Origin: a candidate division FCPU426 bacterium
Lineage (GTDB): Bacteria; Oederibacteriota; PGYV01; Palsa-1178
Assembly (NCBI GenBank): GCA_963840035.1
Contig: CAWIXE010000002.1
Span: forward strand, 288,001 to 352,000
Direction of reading: 5' to 3'
Length of the DNA stretch: 64,000 nt
The notes under the pieces are model-generated. The model did not search any database, had not been told where the DNA came from, and saw only the letters and a program-made list of their open reading frames with translations. The translations under genes and the position numbers were made by a program. The first letter of the stretch is position 1; each line of letters opens with the position of its first letter. Shown in pieces: positions 26,167 through 60,676 of this stretch.

Positions 26167-26763
26167 ATGGACCGCGATACTGAAAAAAGGATCGTTGAAG
26201 AGTCGAGGAAAAACCCCGGGGCTTTCGGAAAAATATTCGAGGAATACTATCCGGCCATATACCGGTATGCCCTTCACAGGATGGGCAATGTCGACGCGGC
26301 AAATGACGTAGCCGCGGAGGTTTTCTTTAAGGCCCTTAATAAGCTCTCGGGTTTCAAATGGGCGGGTGTGCCGTTTTCGGCATGGCTCTACCGGATAGCG
26401 GGAAACGAGATTATAGATTATTACAGGGGGCGAAAGCACGAGCCTGATTCGTATGACGCGTACGAAACCGAGTTCAACGTGCTTGATAAAAACGCCCAGG
26501 CTAATATAGAAAAGGAAATGCTTGAAGCCCAGGAAGAAGTTGAAAAAAACGGAAAATTTATTGAAGCCAGGGAAGCGTTGAAAACGCTTCCGGCGAAATA
26601 CCAGGAAGTACTAACCTTAAGGTTTATTGAGGACAGGAAAATACTTGAGATTTGTGCCATCCTTGGCAAGGGTGAGGGCACGGTAAAATCCCTTATTTCA
26701 CGGGGTGTTTCCAGGTTAAAGGAATATTTTGAGGCAAAAAAACGCAACCTTCACGTGAAATAG
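26167..26763 (+). CDS. ECF RNA polymerase sigma factor (ECF-1)
   Basis: Region 2 (ANDVAAEVF, FSAWLYRIAGN) and region 4 (EICAILGKGEGTVKSLISRG). Confidence 0.95.
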   Translation: MDRDTEKRIVEESRKNPGAFGKIFEEYYPAIYRYALHRMGNVDAANDVAAEVFFKALNKLSGFKWAGVPFSAWLYRIAGNEIIDYYRGRKHEPDSYDAYETEFNVLDKNAQANIEKEMLEAQEEVEKNGKFIEAREALKTLPAKYQEVLTLRFIEDRKILEICAILGKGEGTVKSLISRGVSRLKEYFEAKKRNLHVK

Positions 26764-26769
26764 GCGTTA
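26744..26769 (+). promoter_or_regulatory. ECF-1 promoter candidate before the anti-sigma gene
   Basis: GCAACC-N15-CGTTA (TATCAGT). Confidence 0.7.
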
Positions 26770-26787
26770 TATCAGTGAAGGCGAAAG

Positions 26788-27627
26788 GTGGCAATTAAAA
26801 TGGATGAAAAAGACGTAATACAAAAGCTTACACAGGCAGGGATAAAAGGCGCTGAAACACCGCTGCGCAGGGATGCCATTAAAAGGGCCCTTATGGCAAA
26901 AGCGGCTGAAAAAACGCGCGTAAAAAACCCTATATTTTCAAAGCTGGTGCCGTCAGTGGCGCTTGCTTTCGCGTTTGCCGCTGTGACATACTTTGTAGTT
27001 GATAATATGAATGAGGGCTCAAAGTTTAATACGCGCGGCGGGGTATGGTCCACATACACCGATTCCCATGAAGGCGGGAATTCGCAGGTATGGCCGCCGG
27101 AGTCGGACAGCACCAAAAATGATTTTGTCATGTCGCAGCCGGGTTACGGCGGGACAGGTTATGCCGTAAGGGTAACAGGCACCACCGGCAACGCGCTCGG
27201 CCTTAATTATAACTACTTCGGGTTTGTCGTGCGTTTTGACGAGAAGTCACAGTGCCCGACGTGCCAGGGTACGGACATAAAAAAGTATTCCGGCATCAGG
27301 TTTAAGATAAAAGGAACGCTTCCTGCTGGTCAGCTGATGTTTGTGCTGCCGCACGAGTCCAATAATTGCATCAGGGAAAGGCTCACGTGCAAGAGCCTGA
27401 CAGACTACGCGGATTATGAGGAAGACATTACAAAGCATGTTACACGGGAGTGGACAACTGTAATGATTAATTTCAGGCTCGACTTAAAGCAGCCTTTTTG
27501 GGTAAGCGGCGAAAATAAGGTGGACGTGGATAAGGTCCTTGAGAATGTCCATCTGTTCAAGTGGCAGTATAAGAACGGAAACGGCAAGCCGGTTGAGATA
27601 TGGATCGATGATGTGGAGTTGTTTTAA
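26788..27627 (+). CDS. Single-TM putative anti-sigma factor with extracytoplasmic CBM11/CIA30-like domain
   Basis: Short basic N-domain, one TM, then GGVWSTYTD...VWP...FVMSQPG...YSGIRFKIKG...IWIDDVELF, alignable by eye to modules in the GH8 proteins. Confidence 0.8.
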   Translation: MAIKMDEKDVIQKLTQAGIKGAETPLRRDAIKRALMAKAAEKTRVKNPIFSKLVPSVALAFAFAAVTYFVVDNMNEGSKFNTRGGVWSTYTDSHEGGNSQVWPPESDSTKNDFVMSQPGYGGTGYAVRVTGTTGNALGLNYNYFGFVVRFDEKSQCPTCQGTDIKKYSGIRFKIKGTLPAGQLMFVLPHESNNCIRERLTCKSLTDYADYEEDITKHVTREWTTVMINFRLDLKQPFWVSGENKVDVDKVLENVHLFKWQYKNGNGKPVEIWIDDVELF

Positions 27628-27641
27628 CGTTGAGGGATGGC

Positions 27642-27825
27642 GAGACAAGAGATAGGAGACAAAAGTAAGGCGGAGTCGTACTTCTGTCCGGCGGAGTTTT
27701 ACTACTGTCTCCAGTCTCTTGTCTCGTCTTTACTCGAGTAAAGACATTTTGCTGAGGGAAAACGAGACAGGAGATAGGAGACAGAAGTAAGACGGCAGCA
27801 GTTTTACTCCAGTCTCTTGTCTCGC
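27642..27825. repeat. Two consecutive GAGACAR heptamer hairpins
   Basis: gagacaagagataggagacaaaagtaa ... ttactactgtctccagtctcttgtctc, occurring twice with variation. Confidence 0.85.
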
Positions 27826-27846
27826 ATTTACTCAAACTAAGATACT

Positions 27847-27872
27847 GCAACCCGCGAGATTAAGGAACGTTA
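27847..27872 (+). promoter_or_regulatory. ECF-1 promoter candidate before the glycoside hydrolase
   Basis: GCAACC-N15-CGTTA (AGTAAGT). Confidence 0.7.
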
Positions 27873-27915
27873 AGTAAGTAGATGATTGATAAAAAACTAC
27901 GAAGGAGGGATTACA

Positions 27916-30213
27916 ATGAAAAAACTTTTGAAGTTGTTGCTGATGTTGGTTGTAATGCTTGCCATCGTCCTGCCGGCATTTGCCGAGGGCGAAGACATAG
28001 CGGCAAAGCACAGGGTAAAGTTGTGGACATTTGAATCAGGCACGACCGAAGGCTGGCACGGTGTGGCCAAGTGGGCCAGCATCTGCACGGTTAACAAAAA
28101 CCCGGAATATGTAACAGAAGGCAAGAATTCATTAAAGGTCGACCTTACTGGATCCAAGGACTGGAACCAGGAAGTCATGGTAAACAGCGGGCCGTTCGAC
28201 CCGAACGTGACAAAGTTAGTCGAACTTTCATTTGACTGCATAGTTCCTGAAGCGTCCGTAAAAGGGCTGGAATTCCAGGAAATATACATGGTCGTATCGA
28301 GCAAGTCAAATGCCTGGTACCAGTTAAAGAGCCCTCTGCTTGCGGGCACGAACAAGATTGTCTTTAAGATCGACAACGCCAAGATGAACGCTGATGTATG
28401 GAATATTTACCTGGTTACAAACAATACACAGCCGTTCAAAGGGCCGATTTACATAGACAACATGATCGGAAGGATCATGGGCACACCCGGAACCATTGAG
28501 GGAAAAATAACGGACAAAGATACGGGCTCGGCAGTCGCGGGCGCAAGGGTTGTTGTAGGCGATAAGCTTGTTGTAACAGACGCGTCCGGCGCATTCACCA
28601 TGACAGTGCCGGAGGATGTTTATAAACTCGTTGTAGTATCATTTGGATACAAGGATTATTCCACTGAAGTGACGGTCCTGGCAAATAAGACAAAGTCCAT
28701 GGGCTCGATCGCGACATTCAAGAAAAAAGACCCGACAAAGAAAGCCGTAACCATCAACATAGACCCGGCAAAGGTCATACGCACCATAGACCAGCATAAG
28801 ATGTACGGCCAGAACATAGCTGCCTGGCACAAGCCTGAAGGTTACAGGGACAATGTGGCCCTTGGAAAACTCCAGAAGATCGGCGCCACATTTTACAGGC
28901 TTCCCGGCGGCGATTACGGCAACCTATACGACTGGAAGACCGGAGATGTTTACAAATACGACGGCACAAAGAACTGGGTGCCGGAGCTTAACTATATGGG
29001 CGGCATGGCCCCGTTCTTAATCAGGATGAACACGCAGTTTTTCCCGGGACAGGTTGAGGCGCTTCCTATAATAAACATCCTCACACCCGCGGGCAAGACC
29101 ATAGCGCAGAGGCTTGATTACGGCGTTGAATGGCTCCAGGACATGAAGAATAAGGGCATAAAGTACCGTTACGTCGAAATAGGCAACGAGCTTGACAACA
29201 AACCGGACGTACCCGGCCCGAAAAAAGCAAAAGAAGGGCAGAAGTGGTATGACGCCCCCACGGACATGAAGAACAAGATGTGGTGGACGCAGGTTGCCAA
29301 CTACTCAAAAGTATTCAACCTGGCGGCTTACAAGATCAAGACATTTGACAGGTCGCTTAAGATCATGGGCCCGGTACCGATGCAGCCCATGAATAAGGAA
29401 AGAAAAGAAGGCGAACCATGGAAAGCGGAAGGAACGGAAGCGCCGTACTGGGTGGAAAAGTTCCTGAAACTCTCCGGCGATTATGTTGACACGCTGGCCA
29501 TTCACGAATATCCGTTTTGGGCCAATAACGACGCCAGGTTGCTTCTCACGAAACCGCAGACCACATGGCCGGTATACATGCCCAAATACAGGGCATGGAT
29601 AAAGAAGTATATTACGTCAAAGTACCCGAACAAATACGTGGAAGTAGCCCTTACGGAATGGAATTCCGGCGATGAAAATGTCATGACAGCCATGATAGAG
29701 AACGCGCTCTTTTGCGCGGATTATCTCGGCTCGTTCATGAAGGTCGGCGGAGACATGGCGTTTGTGTGGGACATATACACGCAGAAGCCGGGCACCGGCG
29801 GCGGACACGGGCTGCTTGACGAGGAAAATGACCCGACCAGCAAGTTCTCTGAGAGGTCGCATTACTGGGTATTTGACATGTACTATAACAGGTTCGGCAA
29901 AACCATGGTGGAATGCACATCCTCGAGCCCGGACCTGTCGGTATACGCGGCAAAGGTTGATGACGGCACAGTATCAATAATGGCCATCAATAAGACAAAG
30001 CTCGCCATATCGAGCGCCAAGATAAACATCAAAGGAACACCGGTATCAGGCTCAGGCAAGGCATGGCAGTTATCCGAAAAGGAATACGTATGGTCCAAGG
30101 AACTCTTCAGGCCGATAGTAAACTCCGGCCCGACAGAACTTAACGTAAACCTCGGAAACGGCACCTATGACTTCCCGCCGTATTCCGTAACGGTACTGCA
30201 GGTTAAAATATAA
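27916..30213 (+). CDS. Secreted clan GH-A glycoside hydrolase (GH44/GH39/GH51-like) with N-terminal CBM-like and carboxypeptidase-regulatory-like domains
   Basis: Signal peptide; RLPGG, EIGNEL (acid/base), IHEYP, ALTEWN (nucleophile), PPYSVTVL tail; no CTD. Confidence 0.8.
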   Translation: MKKLLKLLLMLVVMLAIVLPAFAEGEDIAAKHRVKLWTFESGTTEGWHGVAKWASICTVNKNPEYVTEGKNSLKVDLTGSKDWNQEVMVNSGPFDPNVTKLVELSFDCIVPEASVKGLEFQEIYMVVSSKSNAWYQLKSPLLAGTNKIVFKIDNAKMNADVWNIYLVTNNTQPFKGPIYIDNMIGRIMGTPGTIEGKITDKDTGSAVAGARVVVGDKLVVTDASGAFTMTVPEDVYKLVVVSFGYKDYSTEVTVLANKTKSMGSIATFKKKDPTKKAVTINIDPAKVIRTIDQHKMYGQNIAAWHKPEGYRDNVALGKLQKIGATFYRLPGGDYGNLYDWKTGDVYKYDGTKNWVPELNYMGGMAPFLIRMNTQFFPGQVEALPIINILTPAGKTIAQRLDYGVEWLQDMKNKGIKYRYVEIGNELDNKPDVPGPKKAKEGQKWYDAPTDMKNKMWWTQVANYSKVFNLAAYKIKTFDRSLKIMGPVPMQPMNKERKEGEPWKAEGTEAPYWVEKFLKLSGDYVDTLAIHEYPFWANNDARLLLTKPQTTWPVYMPKYRAWIKKYITSKYPNKYVEVALTEWNSGDENVMTAMIENALFCADYLGSFMKVGGDMAFVWDIYTQKPGTGGGHGLLDEENDPTSKFSERSHYWVFDMYYNRFGKTMVECTSSSPDLSVYAAKVDDGTVSIMAINKTKLAISSAKINIKGTPVSGSGKAWQLSEKEYVWSKELFRPIVNSGPTELNVNLGNGTYDFPPYSVTVLQVKI

Positions 30214-30242
30214 TTACCAAATAATAATTACAAATTACGAAT
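30212..30242. repeat. Degenerate AATTACN heptamer arm
   Basis: aattacc aaataat aattaca aattacg aat; same family as 6255. Confidence 0.55.
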
Positions 30243-30247
30243 GAAGC

Positions 30248-30280
30248 AAGGGCGGCTGGAAACAGCCGCCCTTTTTGTTT
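30248..30280 (+). terminator. Intrinsic terminator
   Basis: aagggcggctg gaaa cagccgccctttttgttt. Confidence 0.9.
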
Positions 30281-30320
30281 TGTTTTCAGCATTATCGTTC
30301 TTTTTGTAAAGATTTGTTCT

Positions 30321-30391
30321 CGTAGGGGCGAGCCGGTGGCTCGCCCGGGTTTAGAACTAAAGGCAGGGCGAGCCACCGGCTCGCCCCTACG
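30321..30391. repeat. REPIN-like inverted doublet, family B
   Basis: cGTAGGGGCGAGCCGGTGGCTCGCCC ... GGGCGAGCCACCGGCTCGCCCCTACg, perfect inverted pair. Confidence 0.9.
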
Positions 30392-30458
30392 AAGGGCCTG
30401 TAAAACACACAGTAAATACGCAGTTAAAAATAAAAAGCTACGCGATTTTAATCACGCC

Positions 30459-30513
30459 TTGACTTTTTATATTTCCTGTGTGATACTCTATATGTATTAC
30501 AAATGCATTACAT
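30459..30513 (+). promoter_or_regulatory. TA operon promoter and probable antitoxin operator
   Basis: TTGACT-17-GATACT followed by ATGTATTACAA ATGCATTACAT (two pseudo-palindromes). Confidence 0.6.
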
Positions 30514-30529
30514 TTAGGAGGTTTTACCC

Positions 30530-30781
30530 ATGCGTTTCGCTAATATCAGGGAATTAAAGCTTGAGACCAATAAGGTCATGGAAGATGCCGTAAGTTATGG
30601 GTCTATTGTGGTTACTCAGAAGGGTAAGCCTATCGCTTTGATACGCCCCATTAACGAGAATGATATTTCCATCAAAGCAGGCGGGTTGTGGGGGCGGCTC
30701 CGGGATTCCGCTGAAAGGCAGGGGTTCGGGGTTGGGGATGTTGAGGGTGTAATTAAAAAGTCCAGGCATAAGAAGAAATGA
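30530..30781 (+). CDS. Phd/YefM family antitoxin
   Basis: NIRELK...IVVTQKGKPIALIRPI; ATGA overlap with the toxin. Confidence 0.85.
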   Translation: MRFANIRELKLETNKVMEDAVSYGSIVVTQKGKPIALIRPINENDISIKAGGLWGRLRDSAERQGFGVGDVEGVIKKSRHKKK

Positions 30782-31194
30782 AAGTAAAACCTTTAGTTGT
30801 TATTGATACCAATGTCCTGATTTCCAGCCTTTGGGGCGGTAATCCGGGGAAGGTTATTGAGCTGTGGGATAAGAACAGGTTTACCGCGCTTATCAGCAGG
30901 GAAATACTGGACGAATACCTTGATGTCTTAAGCAGGTTTAAAGCCGCGGATGAGGATATAGAGCAGTTCATAATGCTTTTCATGAGCAGGGAAAAGGCCG
31001 CCATAGTTAAAACACATGCCAAATTATCAATAATAAAAAACGACCCGGCTGACAACAAATTCATCGAATGCGCGGTGTACGGGAAGGCGAATTATATAAT
31101 AAGCGGGGATAAGCATTTATTGGGGCTGGGGAAGTATAATAAGATTAAAATAATGACGCCTGCGGAGTTTTTGGCGGAAATTAAGGGTTTGTAG
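30778..31194 (+). CDS. PIN-domain toxin (VapC-like)
   Basis: VIDTNVLIS, DPADNKFIECA, IISGDKHLL. Confidence 0.92.
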   Translation: MKVKPLVVIDTNVLISSLWGGNPGKVIELWDKNRFTALISREILDEYLDVLSRFKAADEDIEQFIMLFMSREKAAIVKTHAKLSIIKNDPADNKFIECAVYGKANYIISGDKHLLGLGKYNKIKIMTPAEFLAEIKGL

Positions 31195-32344: not shown

Positions 32345-32366
32345 AATATCAGCATACATTGGTATT

Positions 32367-32535: not shown

Positions 32536-32606
32536 AAAAATCCGTTAGTTAAAGAAAAGGCAGACGCACTCAGCGCGTCTTTATGACAATAAAAGGAGAA
32601 AAACAA

Positions 32607-33137
32607 ATGGCAAAAAAAGCGAAAAAGGCAGTTAAAAGGGCGCAGATAGTGTCGCTTCCGCCTCAGGGCATGACAACTACAATACCGGATAAATTTTACC
32701 TCGTAGCGGGCGAATCCGAAGGCATGACGCCCCTTAACGCTTTTGATAACGCGCTAGTCGACGCGGGCATCGGCAACACCAATCTTGTGAAGATGTCATC
32801 CATACTTCCCCCGGGCTCAAAGCAGATAAAGCCGGTAAAGCTTCCGCTTGGCGCGCTTGTGCCTGTGGCATTTGCTTCAAAAGTATCATCTCAGACGGAT
32901 GAAATCATATCAGCCGCAGTGGCGATAGCCATACCTAAGGACCCTAAGAAAAACGGGCTTATTATGGAATACTCGGCAGCCGGACACAAGCAGGAAGTGG
33001 AAAAGATAGTAAGGCATATGGCTGAGGAAGGTTTTAAGCAGAGGGGATATGAATTAAAGGAAGTGCTTTCCATATCGGCTCAGCATAACGTGAAGAAAAT
33101 CGGCGCCGCGTACGCGGCCGTCGTTCTCTGGTGGTAA
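32607..33137 (+). CDS. pdaD: Pyruvoyl-dependent arginine decarboxylase
   Basis: LNAFDNALVDAGIGNTNLVKMSSILPP (S-S self-cleavage site), GLIMEYS. Confidence 0.9.
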   Translation: MAKKAKKAVKRAQIVSLPPQGMTTTIPDKFYLVAGESEGMTPLNAFDNALVDAGIGNTNLVKMSSILPPGSKQIKPVKLPLGALVPVAFASKVSSQTDEIISAAVAIAIPKDPKKNGLIMEYSAAGHKQEVEKIVRHMAEEGFKQRGYELKEVLSISAQHNVKKIGAAYAAVVLWW

Positions 33138-33141
33138 TCAG

Positions 33142-33981
33142 ATGGCAAAAATGACCGGCAAGTGGTGCACCGAAGTCTACAGGGACACAGCGCTTTCATT
33201 TAAGATAAAGAAGAAACTCTACGGCAAGCGCTCCAAGTACCAGATGGTTGAAGTCTGGGAGACCGAGAAACACGGAAACCTGATGGCATTAGACGGATGC
33301 TACATGGTATCAACGGAAGAGGAATTCGTATACCACGACATGATAACCCATGTGCCGCTTTTCGCCCACCCGAACCCGGAAAATGTTCTGGTCATCGGCG
33401 GAGGCGACGGAGGCACGGTCAGGGAAGTCATGAGGCATAAAGGGGTAAAGAACATAGATTTCGTCGAGATAGACGATGACGTATACACCGTATCCAAGAA
33501 ATACTTCCCGGCGCTTGTAAAAGGCTTAGAGCAGGACAAGAGGGTAAACTTCATGTTCGGCGACGGCATCAAATATGTAAAAGACTCGTGCGATAAGTAC
33601 GACGTGATACTCGTTGACGGCACTGACCCGTCGGATATAGCCGGCGGATTGTTTTCGTCGGAATTTTTTAAGGATGTCCATAACGCCCTTAAAAAAGACG
33701 GCATCATGGTAATGCAGTCAGAGGACCCGTTCTTTGACGCGGATATCATCAAGAACGTTCAGGACAGGCTGAAAAAGATATTCAGCAAAGCAGGCCTTTA
33801 CCTGGCGTTCATACCCATATATCCTTCGGGCATGTGGAGTTTTTCCTGGGCGTCAAAAAAGCACGACTTGAAGGAAATTAAGAATAAAAAATCAAAGATA
33901 GGCAAATGCAAATACTACACACCCGAACTTCACGGCGCGGCTTTCGCGCTGCCGCAGTTCGTGCAGGACAGGATAAAATGA
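33142..33981 (+). CDS. speE: Polyamine aminopropyltransferase (spermidine synthase)
   Basis: VLVIGGGDGGTVRE, VEID, YDVILVDGTDP, YPSGMW. Confidence 0.95.
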   Translation: MAKMTGKWCTEVYRDTALSFKIKKKLYGKRSKYQMVEVWETEKHGNLMALDGCYMVSTEEEFVYHDMITHVPLFAHPNPENVLVIGGGDGGTVREVMRHKGVKNIDFVEIDDDVYTVSKKYFPALVKGLEQDKRVNFMFGDGIKYVKDSCDKYDVILVDGTDPSDIAGGLFSSEFFKDVHNALKKDGIMVMQSEDPFFDADIIKNVQDRLKKIFSKAGLYLAFIPIYPSGMWSFSWASKKHDLKEIKNKKSKIGKCKYYTPELHGAAFALPQFVQDRIK

Positions 33982-34832
33982 ATTTCATAAAGGACCCCAA
34001 CTTCATAGGTTGCGACGCTTCTTTTAAAGCGGCAAAGTCTGTCGTGGTCGGTCTTCCCTATGACGGCACTTCCTCTTTCAGGCCGGGTTCGCGTTTTGCC
34101 CCGGACTCCATACGCAAACACTCCTATTCCATAGAGACTTTTTCCCATGAGCAGGAAAGGGATTTAACTGATTATAAGATAGCGGACATGGGGAACCTGG
34201 AGCTGCCTTTTGGGAACAGTGAAAAGGCCCTTGATGAAGTGGAAGAACTCTGCGGCTACATATTAAAGAATAAAAAGAAAGCCTTATATATAGGAGGGGA
34301 GCACCTCTTAACATACCCCATCATGAAGCAATACCATAAAAAATATAAGGGCCTGAAAGTCATATACTTTGACGCCCACGCGGATTTCAGGACAGGATAT
34401 TCCGGAAGCAGGCTCTCGCACGCGTCCGCGGCAAGGCTTACCACTGAAGTCATCGGCAATGAGAATTTATACATGTTCGGCATCCGGTCGTTTGAAAAAG
34501 CCGAGTGGCTCCACATGAAGAAGCACAATATATTTGTGGACAGCAAAGTAGAGCGTTTTGACGAGGTAGTTGAAGACATAAAAGACTCCCCGGTTTACAT
34601 GTCCCTTGATATGGATGTTTTTGACCCCGCGTGCCTTCCCGGGCTTGGCACGCCCGAGGCCGGCGGTATTTTTTACAGGGATTTCATGGACTTAATGCCC
34701 GGGCTTTCAAAGCTGAACATAGTGGGCATGGACGTGCTCGAAATATCACCCGAGTATGACCCGCACGGCAATTCCAGCGTATTCGGCGCAAAAGTGATAA
34801 GGGAACTCCTGCTTAATACTGCGGTCAAATGA
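33978..34832 (+). CDS. speB: Agmatinase / ureohydrolase
   Basis: SFRPGSRFAP, GGEH, DAHAD, SLDMDVFDP, GTPE; ATGA overlap with speE. Confidence 0.93.
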   Translation: MNFIKDPNFIGCDASFKAAKSVVVGLPYDGTSSFRPGSRFAPDSIRKHSYSIETFSHEQERDLTDYKIADMGNLELPFGNSEKALDEVEELCGYILKNKKKALYIGGEHLLTYPIMKQYHKKYKGLKVIYFDAHADFRTGYSGSRLSHASAARLTTEVIGNENLYMFGIRSFEKAEWLHMKKHNIFVDSKVERFDEVVEDIKDSPVYMSLDMDVFDPACLPGLGTPEAGGIFYRDFMDLMPGLSKLNIVGMDVLEISPEYDPHGNSSVFGAKVIRELLLNTAVK

Positions 34833-40757: not shown

Positions 40758-41753
40758 ATGAGGGTTACGATAAAGGACATAGCAAAGAGGGTGGGTGTGA
40801 CCCCTGCCACTGTTTCCATGGTCATAAACAACAGCCCCAAGATAAGCCAGAAAACAAAGGAGCTTGTGGCAAGCGCCATAAAGGAAATGAACTACCATCC
40901 TAATTATATAGGAAGAAGCCTCGTCAAAGGCAAAACCAATAACATCGCGGTTGTGGCTTCATTTTTTGCGTCGCTTTTTGCCCTTGAGTCTGTCCGCGGC
41001 ATAGAGGCGAATCTAAGGAATACCCAGTATAACCTGATACTGTATTCGACCAGAGGGCTTGAGGAAAACGAGAACGAGATGCTCCGCAGGCTTTTTTATG
41101 AACGCAGGGCCGACGGGATAATAATCATCTCGTTAAGGATGGAAAAGGAACTTCTTGACGAATTCAAGAAGGAAGGCATACCCGTAGTTTTCATAGAAGA
41201 GGTCATAGAAGGCGCGCCAACAGTAAAATTTAAGAATATAAAGGGCGCATATATGGCCACGGAATACTTTGCCAAGAATAAGAGGAAAAACATAGGGCTT
41301 ATAGTGGGGGAATCAGGATTAAACGCGGAGGAACGGCTTAAAGGCTATAAAGACGCCTTAAATGATTTTGGCATGGCATTTGACGAGAAGAATGTCGTGA
41401 GGGTGAAAAATTATAATTTCGAAGAAGGGGAAAAATGCTTAAAACAGCTCCTTAAAAAATCCCCGGATACAGACGCCATATTCTGCGCGGCCGGGGACGT
41501 GACGGCCATAGGCGTGCTTGACGCCGCAAAAGCCATGGGGGTTAAGGTGCCTGACGACATAGCGGTCATCGGGTATGACGATATTTACATATCAAACCTG
41601 ACAAACCCTTCGCTTACCACCATAAGGCAGCCCATCGCCCAGATGGGAAGGCAGGCTTTTGACGTGCTCATGGATATAGTGGAAGGCAAGACGCCGTATG
41701 AAAGCAAAATTATCAGTTTTGAGCCGGAACTCATTATCCGCGATTCAGTGTAA
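40758..41753 (+). CDS. LacI-family transcriptional regulator
   Basis: TIKDIAKRVGVTPATVSMVIN HTH; VPDDIAVIGYDD, PSLTTIRQP. Confidence 0.96.
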   Translation: MRVTIKDIAKRVGVTPATVSMVINNSPKISQKTKELVASAIKEMNYHPNYIGRSLVKGKTNNIAVVASFFASLFALESVRGIEANLRNTQYNLILYSTRGLEENENEMLRRLFYERRADGIIIISLRMEKELLDEFKKEGIPVVFIEEVIEGAPTVKFKNIKGAYMATEYFAKNKRKNIGLIVGESGLNAEERLKGYKDALNDFGMAFDEKNVVRVKNYNFEEGEKCLKQLLKKSPDTDAIFCAAGDVTAIGVLDAAKAMGVKVPDDIAVIGYDDIYISNLTNPSLTTIRQPIAQMGRQAFDVLMDIVEGKTPYESKIISFEPELIIRDSV

Positions 41754-42688: not shown

Positions 42689-42770
42689 TTTTGGATTTTC
42701 AATTTTAAATTTTCAATTAACGGCAGATCCTGCCTTTAATTGAAAATTTAAAATATAAAATTGAAAATTG
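42687..42770. repeat. Heptamer hairpin element TTTTCAA family
   Basis: aattttggattttcaattttaaattttcaattaa ... ttaattgaaaatttaaaatataaaattgaaaatt. Confidence 0.9.
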
Positions 42771-42778
42771 GAAGGCAC

Positions 42779-43360
42779 ATGGACGAACTTGAGATCATAA
42801 AGCGCGTTAAAAAAGGCGAGACAAAATATTTTGAGGAAATCATAAACAAATACAAAAAGGTCGTATTCGGCCATTGTTATAATTTTTTGCGCAACAGGGA
42901 AGACGCGGAGGACGTGACGCAGGAAGTGTTTGTCAGCGTATATAACAACCTCGCCTCTTTCAGGGGCGACTCAAAGCTCTCCACGTGGATATACAGGATA
43001 ACCATGAACAGCTGTAAGAACAGGTTAAAACAGATGCAGCGCCTGAAAGCCAATTTTATCGAGGAGTTTTATGAGCCGGGCGGCGAGGAAAGGGAAAGCC
43101 TGGTAAACGAGATACAGGAAAAGGAAGAAAAACAGCCGGACAAGGAATTTGTGTCCGATGACATGCGTAAGACCGTTTATAAAAGGATCGATGAGCTCAC
43201 GGAAGAACAAAAAAACGTGATACTTTTGCGTGATGTGGACGGGCTGTCTTATGAGGAGATCGGCCAGTTGTTGAAGCTTTCTGTTCCGGCAGTTAAATCA
43301 AAACTGTTCAGGGCAAGGGAGAATTTAAGGGAAAAGCTTCAGAAAGACAATATCTTATAA
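42779..43360 (+). CDS. ECF RNA polymerase sigma factor (ECF-2, RpoE/SigW-like)
   Basis: DAEDVTQEVF, FRGDSKLSTWIYRI, GLSYEEI, VKSKLFRAR. Confidence 0.95.
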   Translation: MDELEIIKRVKKGETKYFEEIINKYKKVVFGHCYNFLRNREDAEDVTQEVFVSVYNNLASFRGDSKLSTWIYRITMNSCKNRLKQMQRLKANFIEEFYEPGGEERESLVNEIQEKEEKQPDKEFVSDDMRKTVYKRIDELTEEQKNVILLRDVDGLSYEEIGQLLKLSVPAVKSKLFRARENLREKLQKDNIL

Positions 43361-53703: not shown

Positions 53704-56700
53704 ATGCTAAAAGAAAAAAGACTAACTAAATCTCCTAAATCTCTGTTTATACTATTATTTCTTTTCTTTTCTTCAACCATGTTTGCTGCCCATGATTACA
53801 GAAACGCCCTTTATCTTACAACCTATTATTACGGCGCGCAGCGGTGCGGCACATCATATTCCTGGCTTTTTGGCGCGTGCCATGTAAAGGACTCTGACGG
53901 CGCCGCAAAAATTGACGGCGGCTGGCATGACTGCGGGGACCATGTGAAATGGATGGGGACAGGAGCTTACGCGTGCGGCGTGCTGCTGGAAGGGTACCTC
54001 GCTTTTTCATCTTCGTATGAAGACAGGTATCAGCAGACAAATTCAAACGGCGCCTCAGACGGCATACCCGACATAGTAAATGAAGCGAAAGTATACACTG
54101 ATTTTCTTTTAAAGGCTTTATCAGGCGGAAAACTTTATGACCAGATAGGGAATTTCGGATCCGGTACGGGCGGCGACCATAAGCACTTCTCGGAGCCCCA
54201 TGACCAGTCGTTGAATTATACTTCGGCGGAAGGCGGCGAAAGCGACGGCCCCAGGGTATTCCGCGGCGTAACCGCGGCGTCGAACCTCGCGGGCAAAGCA
54301 GCGGCGTCGCTGGCGCTTATGGCCATCGCGTATAAAAATATCGACCTTGCCTACGCGACGCAGTGCTATAACAAAGCAAAGGATTATTTTACATTTGGCG
54401 ACGCGACAAAAGCTGTTTCGTCATCTGTACAGGGCAGCTATTACACCGAAACAAACTGGGCTGATGACATGTCCTGGGGGGCCATAGCCATATACAGGGC
54501 ATCAGTGGCATTGGGTACTCCAGATACATCATACCGCACAAAGGCAATCACATACGCTGACGATGCGGGTTTTCAGGGGGCGGGTTACTGGGTGCTGTGC
54601 TGGGACCATACCGAACAGATGGCAAATTACGGGCTGTGGCTTGTCACGGGCGACACAAAATACAGCGGCCGCATGAAAACGGAAGTTGATAAATACAAAA
54701 CAAAACTTGTTAACTGCACATCGGGCTCATATATGTTTTTTGGCTCTGGCTGGGGCGAACTGCGCTACGGAACGGCGGCCGCTTTTGTCTGCATGCTTTA
54801 TAATAAAAATGTCGCGGCAGACGCGGCGGCTGTTGATGTGGCAAAAAAGACCATTGATTATGTCCTGGGCACGCACTCCACGGCAGGCGACGCGCCGGCA
54901 GGGCGCTCTTTTGTGGTTGGTTATTCCAACCCTGATAATGTGGCGGCCGGCTGGGTACAACACCCCCATCACAGGGGCGCCTTTGGAAAAACAAAGGCGC
55001 AGAATGCCGACCAGCTCTTTCAGAATGAAAAAGCCTCACCCGGGTCTGTGCCTTACACAAACGTGCTTAAAGGGTCCATGATGGGCGGACTGACAGGGAA
55101 CTGTTCCACGTTTACCGATAATATTGACTCCTACCAGTGGACTGAAGGCGGCATAGATTATAACGCGGGGATTGTCGGGGCCATTGCCGGGCTTGTAAAT
55201 TACCTGAACCCGCCGACGCCAACATATTCGCCCACGCAGAACCTTTCCATGACAAGGACATATACGCCTACCGTATCCCCGACTTATACCATAACGCCGA
55301 TACCGCCGGCGACACACAAACTGAACCTTGAAATAAAGTCGGCAAGCCTGGCAAATACGTGCGGCGAGCAGGCCATGAATTATGACATTAAGATTACAAA
55401 TTATGATTCTGTGGACATAGATATCTCGACGTTGAAATGGAGGGTGTGGCTTAACACTGCCGCGTCAATTGTCGTGGAAAAATACGATTCAAGGATATTT
55501 GACGCTACTGGCACGGGCACAAGCAACCAGCCGGGGGTGGCATCTTCCGAGACGGCAATAGGTTCTATATGCAGCCTTGGCGGGAAAACCGCCAATAAAT
55601 ACATTGATGTTACGTTTACCGGGGCGTATTCGATACCGGCAAACGGGGGATATTTATACATGAAGGGCGTGGTAAGGACATCCTCTTACGCGAACCTGGA
55701 CCCCGAGTGCGATGATTATTCCACAATACCCGGCGCATGGGCAGCCTATACCAATTCATCGACGTTTACGCTCTACGAGGGGACTAACCTTGTATGCGAG
55801 TACCTGAATTCAACGACGCAGGATACGGCAAACACGGGAATAAATCCATGCACCGGCGCGACAGGCTGCCCAGGAGCAACGACAAAAACAAATACGCCAA
55901 CCGCGCCTACGTTTACAGCCACGCCGACAAGGACAAATACACCCGTGCCTACCCCGACGTCTACCGCGACACGGACAAATACGCCCGTGGCTCCGACCGC
56001 GACGCATACATCGACCAGGACGGTCACGCTTACAAATACGCCGCAGCCTCCGACATATACTTTCACTTCAACCCTGACAAATACACCTGTGCAGCCGACA
56101 GCAACGTTTACCGCGACTAAGACAAACTCACCCGTTCCACCGACCTCGACATTTACCCTCACGCGCACTAATACGCCGCTGCCGACCGATACTTTTACGC
56201 CGCTGCCAACAGTTACTTTTACTTCCACTTTTACGGCCTCAAAGAGCGCGACCCCGACCCCGACCCCGACAGTGACGCGGACATCATCAAGGACCGCCAC
56301 GCCGACGGTATCTGTCACATCAACAAAATCAATAACGCCTACGCTTACAATAACGCAGACGCATACGGCATCTCCGACAGAAACTGACTATGCAGGCACA
56401 CCGACCGATACATGGACAAGTTCGGCCACGCCGACTATTACGCAAACGCATACCGGCAGCCCCACGGAAACCTGGTCTGTCACCGATACTTATACAGCGA
56501 CGCCGACATTTACTTCCACGGACCTTCCTACGGAGACGAATACTCCCGTTAATACTGCCACGATGGTGCTGCCAAGCAGCACAAATACGCCTGTGAGCAC
56601 AGCCACGGATACCCCGGTGGACACTCCTGTTTATACTGCAACAAATACGCAGGTTAATACCCCGGTAAATACATTCACAAATACTCCCGTGGACACGCAG

Positions 56701-57177
56701 GTAAGCACTGCCACAAATACTCCGGTAAACACGCCGCAAAATACCCCGGTAAATACAGCGACCGCGACAAAAGTGCCTACTATGATTATTACCCCGACAT
56801 TTACACGGACGGCAATGCCGACAGCCGCGGAAACCCCCACAAATACGCCAATTACTGCCGCGACAAAAACAGATATAGAAATAATTCAGGTTAAACCTTT
56901 CCCGAACCCGTATAGCGGGACAGGGGATATGTCGCTGGGCCTTGAAATAACCAGGGCAATTAAGCAAATTGACATTTATATTTATACCTCCGGTTCAAGG
57001 CTTGTCAGGCATTATGCGCTTAATGAAAACCATGCCGCGGGATACTGCGTACTGGACATCAGCGGCGATAAATTTAACGGGCTTGCAAAAGCCACGTATT
57101 ACATGGTCGTAAAGGTGAAGGCTGATAACAATAAGGAAGCCGTCAGCGGTATTGAAAAGATAACTATTTTAAAATGA
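53704..57177 (+). CDS. GH9 endoglucanase + CBM3-like module + Thr-rich stalk + T9SS-like CTD
   Basis: YGAQRCG, GGWHDCGDHVK, HPHHR, TEGGIDYNA; IKITN...DISTLKWRVW and DDYS CBM3-like; FPNP...YYM...KITILK. Confidence 0.9.
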   Translation: MLKEKRLTKSPKSLFILLFLFFSSTMFAAHDYRNALYLTTYYYGAQRCGTSYSWLFGACHVKDSDGAAKIDGGWHDCGDHVKWMGTGAYACGVLLEGYLAFSSSYEDRYQQTNSNGASDGIPDIVNEAKVYTDFLLKALSGGKLYDQIGNFGSGTGGDHKHFSEPHDQSLNYTSAEGGESDGPRVFRGVTAASNLAGKAAASLALMAIAYKNIDLAYATQCYNKAKDYFTFGDATKAVSSSVQGSYYTETNWADDMSWGAIAIYRASVALGTPDTSYRTKAITYADDAGFQGAGYWVLCWDHTEQMANYGLWLVTGDTKYSGRMKTEVDKYKTKLVNCTSGSYMFFGSGWGELRYGTAAAFVCMLYNKNVAADAAAVDVAKKTIDYVLGTHSTAGDAPAGRSFVVGYSNPDNVAAGWVQHPHHRGAFGKTKAQNADQLFQNEKASPGSVPYTNVLKGSMMGGLTGNCSTFTDNIDSYQWTEGGIDYNAGIVGAIAGLVNYLNPPTPTYSPTQNLSMTRTYTPTVSPTYTITPIPPATHKLNLEIKSASLANTCGEQAMNYDIKITNYDSVDIDISTLKWRVWLNTAASIVVEKYDSRIFDATGTGTSNQPGVASSETAIGSICSLGGKTANKYIDVTFTGAYSIPANGGYLYMKGVVRTSSYANLDPECDDYSTIPGAWAAYTNSSTFTLYEGTNLVCEYLNSTTQDTANTGINPCTGATGCPGATTKTNTPTAPTFTATPTRTNTPVPTPTSTATRTNTPVAPTATHTSTRTVTLTNTPQPPTYTFTSTLTNTPVQPTATFTATKTNSPVPPTSTFTLTRTNTPLPTDTFTPLPTVTFTSTFTASKSATPTPTPTVTRTSSRTATPTVSVTSTKSITPTLTITQTHTASPTETDYAGTPTDTWTSSATPTITQTHTGSPTETWSVTDTYTATPTFTSTDLPTETNTPVNTATMVLPSSTNTPVSTATDTPVDTPVYTATNTQVNTPVNTFTNTPVDTQVSTATNTPVNTPQNTPVNTATATKVPTMIITPTFTRTAMPTAAETPTNTPITAATKTDIEIIQVKPFPNPYSGTGDMSLGLEITRAIKQIDIYIYTSGSRLVRHYALNENHAAGYCVLDISGDKFNGLAKATYYMVVKVKADNNKEAVSGIEKITILK

Positions 57178-57181
57178 TGCC

Positions 57182-57428
57182 GGCAGCCGCAGCCTTTAGA
57201 TGAGGCAGTTAATAGTTGTGTTGACAGATTACAAGATGTCATTGCGAGGAGGCGTTTTTGTTATTTGCCGGCGAAGCAATCCGGCTGCTTTTACAGGAAG
57301 AAACGAGATTGCTTCGTCGCCATGAATCAAATACGGCTCCTCGCAATGACAAACTGTAAATATTAAATACTACACTTTAGTCTATGTAAAGGCTGACCTG
57401 GTTTAGCAACCTGAAGGTTGCGGCTGCC
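57182..57428. repeat. Family A REPIN enclosing a TGTCATTGCG element (57237-57351)
   Basis: ggcagccgcagcctttag ... tgtcattgcgagga...gaagcaatc...gattgcttc...tcctcgcaatgaca ... gcaacctgaaggttgcggctgcc. Confidence 0.85.
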
Positions 57429-57534
57429 AAGGGAAAAACATTTCCCCGCAATACTTCCAAATGGCATGAAAAAGGTGTTGTTTAATGCAATTCAAATAGG
57501 TTTCGCCATGTAAAACCCCAACCCCTATTTTTTC

Positions 57535-57562
57535 GGAACTTCTGTTATAATGCGTTGTCTAA
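57535..57562 (+). promoter_or_regulatory. ECF-2 promoter candidate (RpoE-like consensus)
   Basis: GGAACT-N16-GTCTAA. Confidence 0.65.
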
Positions 57563-57614
57563 TACATAAGAATAGGTCTATGTATATATTTTTTTCAGGA
57601 AGAAGGCGCTTTGC

Positions 57615-60518
57615 GTGATAAACATTAATGCTAAAAAAACAGGCCCGAGTAACGCAAAACTTTTAATTACCCTGATTATTTTTATCCTATCCGCGTTTCC
57701 TTTGTTCGCGGCTACCAATGATTACGCCCAGGCTTTAAAGCTCGGGACCTATTTTTTTGGAGGGCAGCGCTGCGGCAATACACAGTCATGGCTCCATGGC
57801 GCATGCCACACACAGGACGGCTCCACGCAGGGTATGAGCCTATCCGGAGGCTGGCACGACTGCGGGGACCATATAAAATTCAGCCAGACCGGCGCTTACG
57901 CGGCCGCGCTGATGCTGTTATCCTATCTGGAGTTTACACCTTCTTTTAAGGATGATTATTCCACCGCAAATTCAGCCGCGCCTTCAAACGGGGTGCCGGA
58001 TGTGCTTGATGAAATAAAAATAGAGACTGATTATCTGCTGAATGTTTTTACCGGGACTGCCCTGTACTATCAGGCAGGGACAGGAGGGGATCCTGACCAC
58101 GCGTGTTTTACCGAACCTGTGACACAATCGGGCTGGACAACGGCCCAGGGCGGAAATCCGAGGACCGCGTATTCATACAACGGTTCCGCGGCGAATATTG
58201 CGGGCGTAACAGCCGCCGCGCTGGCGTATATGGCCATCGCTTACAGGCCATATAATTCGGCATACGCTGATTCCTGCCTTGCGGACGCTCAGGCCATATA
58301 TACTTTCGGAAAAAATTCAACAGGCTCCAGCGGGTCACAGTGCTGCTACTCATCGGCAAACTGGGCCGATGACATGTGCTGGGCTGCCGGCGCGTTATAC
58401 AGGGCAACCGGGACCGCAAGTTATATTACGGATGCCGCGAATTTTTATTCAAACGCAAATTACACGCAGCCGAGCGCGGGGCAGGTAAACTATTACGGCG
58501 GCTGGGACCATACTGAACCATACGGCGCTTATGAATTATGGAGGGGCACAGGCACAGCGGCTTACAGAACCATGCTGCAGACAGCCGTGGGGCTCTTCAA
58601 CGGAAAATTCACATCCTGCGGCGGGAGCGGATACTTCGCGCTCGACGGATGGGGGACTTTCAGGTACGCGTCAGCCGCAGCATTCATTAACCTGCTGTAC
58701 TATAAGATCGATAATACCGCCACGACGGCTTATAATAACGCCAAGGCAAATATGGATTTCATCCTGGGGTCGCATACGGCCTTTGGAAACGTGCCTGCCA
58801 ATTATTCATTTCTCATGGGATACAATGTGCAGGGCGGCGGAAACCCGCAGCATCCCCACCACAGGGCTGCTTTTGGAAAGACCACGGCTTATAATGTGTG
58901 GACAACATTTAACGCGGAGCAGAGTTCGCCCGGAAGCATACCATATGGTTTTTACCTTACCGGCGCCATGATTGGCGGGCTTGCTTCCTCATGTGGAAAT
59001 TTTGTGGACAATATCGGAAACGTAACCACCACAGAGGTTTGCACCGATTATAACGCGTGTTTTGTGGCGGCCATGGGCGCGCTGGTAAGTTATGTAAACC
59101 CCACAACTCCGACAAATACACCGGTGGCGCAATCGCCGACTTTTACGGTTACTTTCACAAGAACAGCAACAAAGACAGCGACAAAAACCGCAACAATGAC
59201 TTTTACACTTACAAACACGCCAAATCCTCCCACGGATACATTTACCCCGACTTTTACCCGGACCGCGACTAAGACTGCCACGCTAACTTCGACCATGACT
59301 TACACCATGACAAATACGCCTGTCGCGCCGACGTTTACATACACGGCGACTTTTACCGGGACGGCGACTAAAACAGCAACGCGGACTTCGACGATGACTT
59401 ACACATTAACAAATACCCCTGTTGCTTTCACGCCGACATTCACACAGACCTTTACCGCGACTGCGACAGTTTCATATACGCCGACACAGACGCCGTTGGC
59501 GCCTACAAATACTTTCACGGCAACGCGGTCATTTACCCTGACAGCCACGCCGACTAAGACGTCCACTGAAACATTTACAGTCACAGTTACGCCGAGCGGC
59601 ACAAAGACCGCCACCCTGACTGTTTCAAATACACAGACCATGACGGCCACCCCGACAAGAACAGTTACGCAGAGCCTGACTTCAACGCCGACGTTTACCA
59701 TCACTGAAACACATACTGCCTCGCCAACGGAAACTGATTATGCCGGTACGCCGACTGATACATATACGCCAACTCCTTCATTTACTGTTACACAGACAGG
59801 CACGGCATCGCCGACTTATACAGTCACTTACACTCTGACCGATACGCCTACGGCGGAAGATACCCCGACTCAGACAAATACACAGACAGGGACGCCTACT
59901 GAACTCCCGAGCGGGACAAATACTCCGAGCGGGACACAGACCATGCCATACACGGCCACATGGACGCCTTCAGTTACACAAACTGATACGCCTTTTGACA
60001 CGGCAACACAGACGCAGGTCGACACACCTGTACAGACTTACACACAGACGCCTGTTAATACAATTACATCAAGCCCGACGCAGACAGCCGTAAACTCCGC
60101 CTCGCCAACAAGGACTAACACTCCGGTTATCACAAATACATTTACGCGCACGATTGTCCCGACCAACACTGTCACTCCTACAGGAACGCCGGTTGGCGTG
60201 CCTACGGAAAAAGACATCAGGATAATCGATACAAAGCCGTACCCGTGCCCGTATATCAATTCGGCAGATTTGACGGTAGGATTCACGTTAACAAGGAACG
60301 CTGTGAAAACGGAATTTTATTTATATACCAAGGCGATGAGGCTGATCAGAAAATACTCTTTACCGGGAACATACGCTGCGGGGTATAACACGCTTAGCAT
60401 TGACAGCCCGTTGTTCGCAGGCATTTCAAGGGGCGTATACTATTTCGTAATAACGGCAACAGGGGATAATAAAGCGGTTGCAAAAAGCCGGATTGAAAAG
60501 CTTATAATACTTAAATAG
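57615..60518 (+). CDS. GH9 endoglucanase + long Thr-rich stalk + T9SS-like CTD
   Basis: FGGQRCG, GGWHDCGDHIK, HPHHR, TEVCTDYNA; YPCP...ISRGVYYF...KLIILK. Confidence 0.9.
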   Translation: MININAKKTGPSNAKLLITLIIFILSAFPLFAATNDYAQALKLGTYFFGGQRCGNTQSWLHGACHTQDGSTQGMSLSGGWHDCGDHIKFSQTGAYAAALMLLSYLEFTPSFKDDYSTANSAAPSNGVPDVLDEIKIETDYLLNVFTGTALYYQAGTGGDPDHACFTEPVTQSGWTTAQGGNPRTAYSYNGSAANIAGVTAAALAYMAIAYRPYNSAYADSCLADAQAIYTFGKNSTGSSGSQCCYSSANWADDMCWAAGALYRATGTASYITDAANFYSNANYTQPSAGQVNYYGGWDHTEPYGAYELWRGTGTAAYRTMLQTAVGLFNGKFTSCGGSGYFALDGWGTFRYASAAAFINLLYYKIDNTATTAYNNAKANMDFILGSHTAFGNVPANYSFLMGYNVQGGGNPQHPHHRAAFGKTTAYNVWTTFNAEQSSPGSIPYGFYLTGAMIGGLASSCGNFVDNIGNVTTTEVCTDYNACFVAAMGALVSYVNPTTPTNTPVAQSPTFTVTFTRTATKTATKTATMTFTLTNTPNPPTDTFTPTFTRTATKTATLTSTMTYTMTNTPVAPTFTYTATFTGTATKTATRTSTMTYTLTNTPVAFTPTFTQTFTATATVSYTPTQTPLAPTNTFTATRSFTLTATPTKTSTETFTVTVTPSGTKTATLTVSNTQTMTATPTRTVTQSLTSTPTFTITETHTASPTETDYAGTPTDTYTPTPSFTVTQTGTASPTYTVTYTLTDTPTAEDTPTQTNTQTGTPTELPSGTNTPSGTQTMPYTATWTPSVTQTDTPFDTATQTQVDTPVQTYTQTPVNTITSSPTQTAVNSASPTRTNTPVITNTFTRTIVPTNTVTPTGTPVGVPTEKDIRIIDTKPYPCPYINSADLTVGFTLTRNAVKTEFYLYTKAMRLIRKYSLPGTYAAGYNTLSIDSPLFAGISRGVYYFVITATGDNKAVAKSRIEKLIILK

Positions 60519-60521
60519 GGC

Positions 60522-60605
60522 GGATTATGAATTCTGGATTCCAGATTCTGGATTGAGGAAAAAACGGGCTTTTATTGGGTTTTAATCCAGAATCTAGAAT
60601 CAAGC
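60522..60605. repeat. Heptamer hairpin element GATTCTG ... CAGAATC
   Basis: gattatg aattctg gattcca gattctg gatt ... aatccagaatctagaatc. Confidence 0.8.
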
Positions 60606-60612
60606 AAAAAAC

Positions 60613-60638
60613 GCAACCTAAAACAAGCAGTTGCGTTA
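60613..60638 (+). promoter_or_regulatory. ECF-1 promoter candidate before the SLH-porin operon
   Basis: GCAACC-N15-CGTTA (AGTTAGT). Confidence 0.7.
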
Positions 60639-60676
60639 AGTTAGTGACGGGATTTTGCTGTGTTGATATATTAGCG

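Follow-up and report, generated by a model that had tools for sequence, protein, structure and literature searches.

In the passages that deal with them in PMC4711584 and PMC10766802, the SigI/RsgI systems of Clostridium (Acetivibrio) thermocellum comprise several paralogous pairs of sigma and anti-sigma factor. The anti-sigma sits in the membrane and exposes, outside the cytoplasm, a sensor for carbohydrates that is related to modules found in the bacterium's enzymes; every sigma uses a distinct promoter code of two blocks in front of cellulase and hemicellulase genes, and some targets additionally possess a housekeeping promoter for basal expression. A second group, the extracytoplasmic function (ECF) systems of the Bacteroides polysaccharide utilization loci (PUL) and those reported to control cellulase genes of Cytophaga hutchinsonii, is outlined in PMC10766802 as operating in a Gram-negative-type envelope, where an ECF sigma factor and a membrane anti-sigma switch on glycan enzymes together with outer-membrane uptake. 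Goldbacteria are described in PMC7031533 as cellulose degraders that have not been cultured, all knowledge of them coming from genomes and from enzyme assays done cell-free. The DNA analysed here (the window) is a 64-kb stretch, C2:288001-352000, of a 3.46-Mb genome in three contigs (G000; contigs C1-C3); positions given without a contig count from its first letter. It encodes an ECF sigma factor, ECF-1, next to a candidate anti-sigma factor, and contains three copies of a two-block element, GCAACC-N15-CGTTA, in which N15 stands for 15 nucleotides (nt) of any sequence. As predicted from its sequence, the locus is like both groups of systems in the respects just listed. We consider it likely that GCAACC-N15-CGTTA, followed by W (A or T), A and T, is the promoter code of ECF-1 in this Goldbacteria-type diderm, with the anti-sigma, whose external domain resembles carbohydrate-binding module (CBM) family 11, as the sensor.

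Exact copies of the element lie at three positions on the + strand of the window (sites 1 to 3, Table 1), against 0.02 expected from dinucleotide shuffles, with three or more copies in 0 of 100 shuffles. A first-pass annotation of this DNA had named the same three positions, with unrelated spacers and particular tails after the second block, and a print of the sequences confirms all of these as written. The whole genome holds ten exact sites at spacer 15, whereas the same two blocks at the other spacers from 5 to 60 give a mean of 0.82 sites and a maximum of 5 (independence estimate, 0.92). The Poisson probability is about 2e-8 for all ten sites and about 2-4e-5 for the seven outside the window, which played no part in defining the motif. 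The excess at spacer 13 (5 sites) was considered as a signal and rejected, three of its members being copies of one tandemly repeated stretch and the remainder background. These three near-identical GCAACC-N13-CGTTA stretches (C2:2900, 5324 and 7748) are spaced 2424 bp apart, which points to an extended tandem repeat that probably encodes recurring domains of one giant gene.

Positions that took no part in the search are also biased. Position -3 is A in 9/10 sites, the base directly after CGTTA is A or T in all ten, and the two bases that follow are A in seven and T in seven of the ten sites. The exact AGT tail, earlier taken to be shared, is confined to the three window sites, the wider feature being the T at the third tail position. 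Relaxing any one of the 11 bases at spacer 15 yields 20 genome sites in all, which we estimate to be about the chance level; both blocks and their spacing are therefore strictly kept, as expected of an ECF promoter. One-mismatch sites were in general rejected as an extension of the regulon on the same estimate, and among them only C2:645252, 37 nt upstream of a fourth, weak GH44-like gene (GH, glycoside hydrolase family), and perhaps C2:187549 look meaningful. Promoters of ECF sigma factors typically carry AAC at -35 and CGT at -10, and all ten sites place exactly 16 nt between these two triplets. The motif has no dyad symmetry and consists of two short blocks around a spacer of fixed length but unconserved sequence; the spacers of the sites are unrelated, and no extended identity is found in their flanks. 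Each of the ten sites is oriented toward a gene on the same strand that starts 56-362 nt downstream, and seven are fully intergenic, while open reading frames (ORFs) of at least 150 amino acids (aa) cover 85% of the genome. A regulon, as predicted from these patterns, is well supported at the level of DNA.

Site 1 lies at the boundary between the sigma gene and the anti-sigma gene. By its sequence the 198-aa protein is a bona fide ECF (group 4 sigma-70) factor: it contains the sigma-2 and sigma-4 domains only (Pfam Sigma70_r2 and Sigma70_r4_2/r4) and matches NCBIfam TIGR02937 (sigma70-ECF) at 93.5 bits against a cut-off of 42.9, while its best named NCBIfam matches, the BldN family and SigW, both fall below cut-off. 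The adjacent 275-aa protein, whose ATG has a GGTGG ribosome-binding site, is the anti-sigma candidate, with a K/R-rich helical cytoplasmic N-terminus of about 45 aa, one transmembrane helix (approximately residues 49-67) and an ectodomain (approximately residues 68-275). It matches no Pfam family at E up to 10, CBM_11 and CIA30 included, no NCBIfam family and, by phmmer, no sequence in the PDB; its named homologues come from Goldbacteria or unclassified assemblies. AlphaFold2 (AF2) models the ectodomain as a beta-sandwich (pLDDT mostly above 84), and Foldseek aligns it with CIA30 (1.2e-8), with C. thermocellum CBM11 (about 2e-8, TMt 0.63-0.69; structures 6r3m_A at 2.1e-8 and 1v0a at 2.6e-8, TMt 0.65-0.69) and then with CBM30. 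The CBM sensor earlier proposed for this anti-sigma is thus CBM-like by fold. The ectodomain is in addition homologous to domains repeated in secreted proteins of 1200-2400 aa in Goldbacteria genomes. Giant glucanases of the organism itself are among the carriers, one being the window's GH8 protein of 1609 aa, and related domains in the window's GH8 proteins do match Pfam CBM_11/CIA30.

The region upstream of the sigma gene is less uniform. No motif precedes position 26167 in this genome, even with a relaxed pattern. Only two of the 19 related loci described below (L020 in G077 and L024 in G095) carry GCAAC[TC]-N15-16-CGT[AT] about 55 nt upstream of the sigma gene, and classical sigma autoregulation may operate in those lineages. 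The GAF-GGDEF diguanylate cyclase gene is the conserved upstream neighbour, ending about 30 nt before the sigma gene in relatives. Here it is split into two frames, with the break near 25310-25330, reflecting either a frameshift (a pseudogene) or an assembly error.

Conservation across relatives ties the motif to this locus. Full-length orthologues of the anti-sigma were found in 18 genomes of the same order, and with one paralogue-type locus these make up the 19 related loci; 13 of the 18 sigma orthologues, plus paralogues, were aligned (alignment A2). In the other orders of the phylum no anti-sigma orthologue was detected, only weak matches to CBM-like domains in large proteins. Relatives share one order of genes, namely GAF-GGDEF, sigma, anti-sigma and large hydrolase. 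GCAAC occurs no more than 70 nt upstream of the anti-sigma start in 19/19 related loci, and the full GCAAC-N15-17-[CGT][GA]TTA in 14 of them, the second block between the two genes reading CGTTATA in family f1 and GCATTATA in most other families. In the sigma alignment the conserved part of the protein stops before the motif and is followed by a tail that varies from 0 to about 25 aa. The bases GCAACC are read as Arg-Asn here and in L020 and as Gln-Pro in L013, L014, L018 and L023, and in at least nine loci the -35 block lies beyond the sigma stop codon. Conservation at site 1 is therefore of DNA and not of protein. Inspection of the alignment by eye gave no clear pattern of sigma residues separating CGTTA-type from CATTA-type orthologues, a comparison confounded by relatedness.

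The predicted targets are conserved as well. The seven other genomes of the family contain 3, 6, 4, 1, 2, 1 and 3 exact sites, 20 in total against 4 for a reversed-pattern control. Six of the 20 precede the anti-sigma gene, and the CGTTA form lies inside the ECF-1 locus in 6/7 of these genomes. Orthologues of other targets account for one site before the GH51-like hydrolase gene (G098), one located 160 nt upstream of the orthologue of the 805-aa barrel protein (G092, 60% identity) and one before the LysM gene (G096). The remainder comprise one GH44 gene, two GH44-like genes with an F5/8-C domain, one GH9 gene with CelD_N, one site directly before a LacI gene, three at a single orthologous position within the 3' part of a GH9-CBM9 gene, with LacI or GH5 following after 260-430 nt (loci L039, L054 and L055 in G092, G093 and G094), and three that are unclear or probably due to chance. 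The GH9-CBM9 sites might represent an internal promoter or else an inherited coincidence within coding sequence. A variant, GCAAC-N16-CATTATA, has 10 matches in families f8 and f10 against 1 for the control, among them five before the anti-sigma gene, one before a GH44 gene, one before the gene of a CBM_4_9 protein and one inside an ORF. The variant also precedes the N-terminus of a barrel orthologue in G084 (44% identity over 71 aa, at a contig end), with the same barrel context at a contig end in a sister genome. By comparison, five near-complete genomes of other orders, which have no anti-sigma, show 1 match in total against 6 for the control. The earlier description of the element as an ECF-type promoter is borne out by its AAC and CGT blocks and by this attachment to the ECF-1 locus.

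The genes behind the ten sites are largely those of polysaccharide breakdown and uptake (Table 1). Five of the seven sites outside the window precede glycoside hydrolase genes (two GH44, GH9, GH5 and GH2), so the enrichment before carbohydrate-active enzyme genes that the first-pass annotation had proposed to look for is present. The genome has three GH44 genes above cut-off, of which two carry the motif, and about nine each of GH9 and GH5. The three window genes had been read as an uptake arm; this is too narrow, as the targets also include the two GH44, GH9, GH5 with LacI, GH2 and LysM genes. LacI-family regulators adjoin both cellulase clusters, at 40758-41753 in the window and at C2:209016-210017, the second lying downstream of an ECF-1 site with the GH5 gene between; their position suggests layered control by sigma factor plus repressor.

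Table 1. Features of the ECF-1 locus, its predicted targets and the paralogous locus; C1 to C3 denote contigs, other positions refer to the window
Feature	Position	Strand	Evidence or context
GAF-GGDEF diguanylate cyclase gene	24509..25925	+	Pfam GGDEF 1e-45; two ORFs, 24509-25327 and 25353-25925
ECF-1 sigma factor, 198 aa	26167..26763	+	Pfam Sigma70_r2 1.2e-16, Sigma70_r4_2 1.9e-13
Promoter-like site 1	26744..26769	+	overlaps last sigma codons and TAG stop; 56 nt before ATG 26800
Anti-sigma candidate, 275 aa	26800..27627	+	synteny with sigma gene; 51 homologues, 39-68% identity
Nested palindromic (REP-like) repeat block, 219 nt	27628..27846	+	between anti-sigma and hydrolase genes
Promoter-like site 2	27847..27872	+	directly after repeat block; 69 nt before ATG 27916
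Secreted hydrolase, 765 aa from ATG (775-aa ORF)	27916..30213	+	Pfam CarboxypepD_reg; family profile
Promoter-like site 3	60613..60638	+	179 nt before ATG 60792
Housekeeping-type promoter TTGACC-N17-TATAAT with TG extension	60720..60748	+	11/12 consensus matches; between site 3 and gene
Outer-membrane protein, 805 aa	60792..63209	+	AF2 model, Foldseek, profile
Second operon gene, 715 aa	63225..64000, continuing past window end	+	SLH-like N-terminus weakly similar to 805-aa protein
GH44, 305 aa	downstream of site C1:525505		
GH9 with CelD_N	site C2:190257		true ATG 56 nt from motif start; terminator upstream; second GH9 next
GH5 with FlgD_ig tail, then LacI regulator	downstream of site C2:206802		
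GH2	downstream of site C2:427589		
GH44, 1007 aa	downstream of site C2:1314984	-	
LysM protein	downstream of site C3:71753		
122-aa secreted protein	site C2:544224		site inside recJ 3' end; weakest
Paralogue locus (L008)	C3:305058-307410		further CATTA sites C1:762510, C1:1116633

Site 2 stands before a secreted 765-aa protein that from its sequence is a GH51-like hydrolase of clan GH-A, as an earlier assignment to that clan had it. The protein comprises a signal peptide, an N-terminal CBM-like region, CarboxypepD_reg, a clan GH-A catalytic domain and a C-terminal beta-sandwich. No Pfam GH family reaches threshold on it, yet in a family profile its C-terminal 500 aa match GH51 arabinofuranosidases (6e-18, with the catalytic and C-terminal domains covered in full), and also GH44, GH39 and GH79; N424-E425 (GNE; acid/base) and E581 (TEWN; nucleophile) are invariant in 26 sequences. 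A distant homologue matches GH39 weakly, and some sources name homologues alpha-L-arabinofuranosidase. The ATG at 27916 has a GAAGGAGGG site. The hydrolase gene lies close behind the anti-sigma gene, with a gap of a few to about 170 nt, in most of the 18 orthologous loci, and a second motif copy before it was found only in G098 (L057), so a single internal promoter probably drives both genes in most relatives. The claim that site 1 drives only the anti-sigma gene holds at best in this genome, where the hairpin-forming block and the second copy intervene, and probably fails for most of the orthologous loci.

The repeat block itself folds strongly as RNA (27625-27850: -102.5 kcal/mol, z = -10.4). 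A riboswitch or small RNA was considered for 25900-28000 and rejected, Rfam having returned for this interval only sub-threshold, microRNA-like hairpin matches to the repeat block, that is, hairpin noise. Similar low-complexity palindromes occur in intergenic DNA near promoters at about 25926-25990 and 60520-60600; like the block itself, they probably belong to the repetitive extragenic palindromic (REP) or small-hairpin repeats. The hydrolase gene is followed closely by a pair of genes (30530-31194) for a Phd/YefM-like antitoxin (weak Pfam match) and a PIN-domain toxin. The nearby 32583-34832 segment encodes an ordinary polyamine set of pyruvoyl-dependent arginine decarboxylase, spermidine synthase and an agmatinase/arginase-family enzyme.

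Site 3 precedes an operon whose first product had been called a porin with an S-layer homology (SLH) domain. This 805-aa protein has a signal peptide, and its AF2 model shows a small helical SLH-like domain, helices 90-157 and about 30 strands up to residue 802, and the chain ends in Phe at the end of the large beta-barrel. Its best Foldseek matches are Deinococcus SlpA/SDBC, Veillonella OmpM1 and other large barrels, with low TM-scores (0.15-0.42); the family profile finds the SLH chain 8bz2_A at a weak E of 0.0078 and then coiled coils, and its look-alikes in a protein language model (Atlas) are SLH/OMP clusters at 0.96 with SLH in 75-100% of members. No Pfam family (SLH included) and no NCBIfam family matches it. 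On the model and these comparisons the protein is a coiled-coil/large-barrel outer-membrane protein with a candidate SLH domain, in keeping with the earlier designation. Further downstream in the operon, beyond the window, follow a CBM9 protein, small CBM11/CIA30-like proteins and a GH9 gene. The operon has two promoter-like elements in tandem, the ECF motif followed by a housekeeping-type promoter; the same tandem, with TTGACC-N17-TATAAT, precedes the orthologous operon in G092, and TTGACA lies upstream of the start codon of the barrel orthologue in G084. The 805-aa protein has a paralogue (C2:606907-609156, 34% identical), and there the genome-wide scan gave no exact GCAACC-N15-CGTTA near C2:606907. 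We read the tandem as providing basal plus induced expression of an uptake operon, and the passage of PMC10766802 on C. thermocellum xylanase genes describes the same basal-plus-induced promoter logic.

These observations can be arranged into a working model. The adjacent single-pass protein would keep ECF-1 at the inner membrane and project its CBM11-like beta-sandwich into the periplasm. The housekeeping promoter of the barrel operon would maintain basal uptake, so that oligosaccharides released from beta-glucans could enter the periplasm through the barrels and the inducer would be inside before the ECF promoter amplifies the response. Binding of beta-glucan or cello-oligosaccharide fragments to the CBM11-like domain would then free ECF-1, probably through regulated proteolysis or a conformational change, and RNA polymerase bearing ECF-1 would fire about ten promoters. 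The predicted targets are the anti-sigma gene, joined in most relatives by the GH51-like hydrolase gene that follows it; the operon of two large, putatively SLH-tethered outer-membrane barrels and small CBM9 and CBM11-like proteins; and the two GH44, GH9, GH5 plus LacI, GH2 and LysM genes. The sigma gene, placed behind the GAF-GGDEF gene, may be co-transcribed with it. Since the sigma gene has no motif, induction would raise the anti-sigma and not the sigma factor, and the raised anti-sigma would reset the switch; negative feedback of this kind is plausible.

Several observations weigh against this model. The assignment of the motif to ECF-1 comes from co-location of motif and sigma gene in a genome that has about ten other ECF-type sigma genes, and the sigma gene here lacks an upstream motif of its own, unlike the usual autoregulated ECF design. 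No known anti-sigma domain was matched by the N-terminus of the anti-sigma, for which model confidence is low, and the CBM11 membership of the sensor is by fold only. About one of the ten sites is expected by chance; the recJ 3'-end site (C2:544224) and the LysM site are the weakest in this genome, though the latter recurs in G096. Families f8 and f10 show little of the variant motif beyond its main sites, and the wide regulon may therefore be specific to this family. Finally, the sites of the closest paralogous pair share GCAACC and differ by one base in the second block (CATTA).

The last point leads to the strongest alternative, that the element is a genuine ECF-type promoter but that its reader is a different sigma factor, or both paralogues; ECF-1 would then simply be encoded next to one of that reader's targets. 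The genome contains about 11 ECF-type sigma genes, and the closest paralogue of ECF-1, on contig 3 (48% identity), is accompanied by a CBM-type anti-sigma (47% identical) and one more CBM-like protein. At this locus GCAACC-N16-CATTA precedes the sigma gene, and GCAACC-N15-CATTA lies in the interval before the anti-sigma gene. Only two other CATTA sites with spacer 15 were found, one at 59 nt from a GH9 gene and one at 62 nt from the gene of a 1047-aa secreted protein, both in front of their genes. With GCAACC common to both sets of sites and one base between them, cross-talk is possible; moreover, ECF-1 orthologues in other families themselves use CATTATA. The lack of a motif before the ECF-1 sigma gene would fit a different reader as well. 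However, the CGTTA form lies inside the ECF-1 locus here and in nearly all the other genomes of the family, the paralogue's own locus carries the CATTA form only, throughout the order ECF-1 orthologues are accompanied by the -35/-10 element ahead of their anti-sigma gene, and genomes without the pair show no enrichment. We therefore regard a different or shared reader as unlikely.

That the motif is instead the operator of a DNA-binding regulator, for example one of LacI type beside the cellulase genes, or some other conserved non-promoter element, is quite improbable: LacI genes do lie downstream of several sites, but LacI operators are palindromic, and the motif consists of two short blocks without dyad symmetry, set a fixed distance apart by unconserved bases; it always points at the gene and shows the AAC...CGT pattern typical of ECF promoters, besides being anchored between sigma and anti-sigma genes in 19/19 loci. 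Chance, or a by-product of coding sequence or repeated DNA, would explain about 0.9 sites and might account, in relatives, for the three sites in GH9-CBM9 coding sequence and for another two or three within the 3' ends of genes unrelated to the system, yet it is very improbable as an explanation of ten sites against 0.8-0.9 expected, with unrelated spacers and no flanking identity, kept across reading frames and in non-coding DNA, present before orthologous targets in other genera and at background in control genomes.

The window holds a second ECF pair. ECF-2 (sigma gene 42761-43360) is followed by a zf-HC2 anti-sigma, and between the two genes lies a different element, CGRAAC-N17-GTCWWA (43401), in the same layout as at the ECF-1 locus. 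The element also occurs before both GH9 genes of the window (53619 and 57534) and, at C2:202887, before the GH9 gene at C2:203323; the genome has 9 sites at N17 against 0-6 at other spacings.

Beyond the assignment of the CGTTA sites to ECF-1, a wider reading may be entertained, which we put forward tentatively. Several ECF/anti-sigma pairs in Goldbacteria could form an independently evolved system in the clostridial style of one sensor, one promoter code and one enzyme set, with the words CGTTA for ECF-1, CATTA for its paralogue and CGRAAC-N17-GTCWWA for ECF-2, each placed between sigma and anti-sigma, and with each pair in charge of a separate subset of the GH9, GH44, GH5 and GH8 enzymes. 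The CBM11-like domains of the ECF-1 type would report which oligosaccharides the SLH-tethered barrels admit, the single G/A difference in the -10 block would insulate the paralogues, and autoregulation of the anti-sigma in place of the sigma would give an adapting, pulse-like response.

No paper suggesting a CBM11 sensor on an anti-sigma was found, judged by titles and abstracts, and the literature search returned none joining Goldbacteria or Goldiibacteriota with 'sigma factor'. In the text of the Goldbacteria cellulase paper (PMC7031533) the terms 'ECF', 'promoter' and 'regulat' occur 0 times and 'sigma' once. The proposed promoter code would make part of the plant-fibre response circuit of an uncultured cellulose degrader readable from its genome: it predicts which of many GH and CBM genes would be co-induced and places the pair of outer-membrane barrels in the same response. 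It also offers a compact, orthogonal set of sigma, anti-sigma and promoter with a candidate glucan-sensing domain, which can be tested without culturing the organism.

Among better-known ECF regulons, the promoters of SigW, SigM and BldN resemble the present element in having AAC at -35 and CGT at -10 with about 16 nt between, very stringent base conservation and a small regulon. They differ in their targets, in the words themselves (here GCAACC and CGTTAWAT) and in the position of the conserved site, which here lies between sigma and anti-sigma and not upstream of sigma. With respect to the Bacteroides PUL systems, Pfam scans of the present system revealed neither an anti-sigma of FecR type nor a SusC/TonB-dependent transducer bearing a signalling extension; the CBM-like sensor sits on the anti-sigma itself, and the outer-membrane partners are large, putatively SLH-tethered barrels.

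There are differences from SigI/RsgI as well. Here an ECF protein (sigma2 plus sigma4, TIGR02937) takes the place of the sigma-I, RsgI_N is absent from the anti-sigma, which has no Pfam match, and no promoter of its own precedes the sigma gene in this genome. The SigI promoter, given in the relevant passage of PMC4711584 as C-----AAA-N13-14-CGWA, differs from GCAACC-N15-CGTTA in both blocks and in spacing. The sensor is CBM11-like, unlike the CBM3, PA14 and GH10 sensors of RsgI proteins, and because the host is a diderm it would face the periplasm rather than the cell surface, where it must read periplasmic oligosaccharides and not the insoluble polymer. CBM sensing borne on the anti-sigma would thereby be extended from the sigma-I systems of Gram-positive bacteria to the ECF sigma factors of a diderm candidate phylum. 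Taken together, the comparisons describe a predicted glycan-sensing sigma/anti-sigma control in Goldbacteria that is new as a variant and would work like SigI/RsgI without its defining features.

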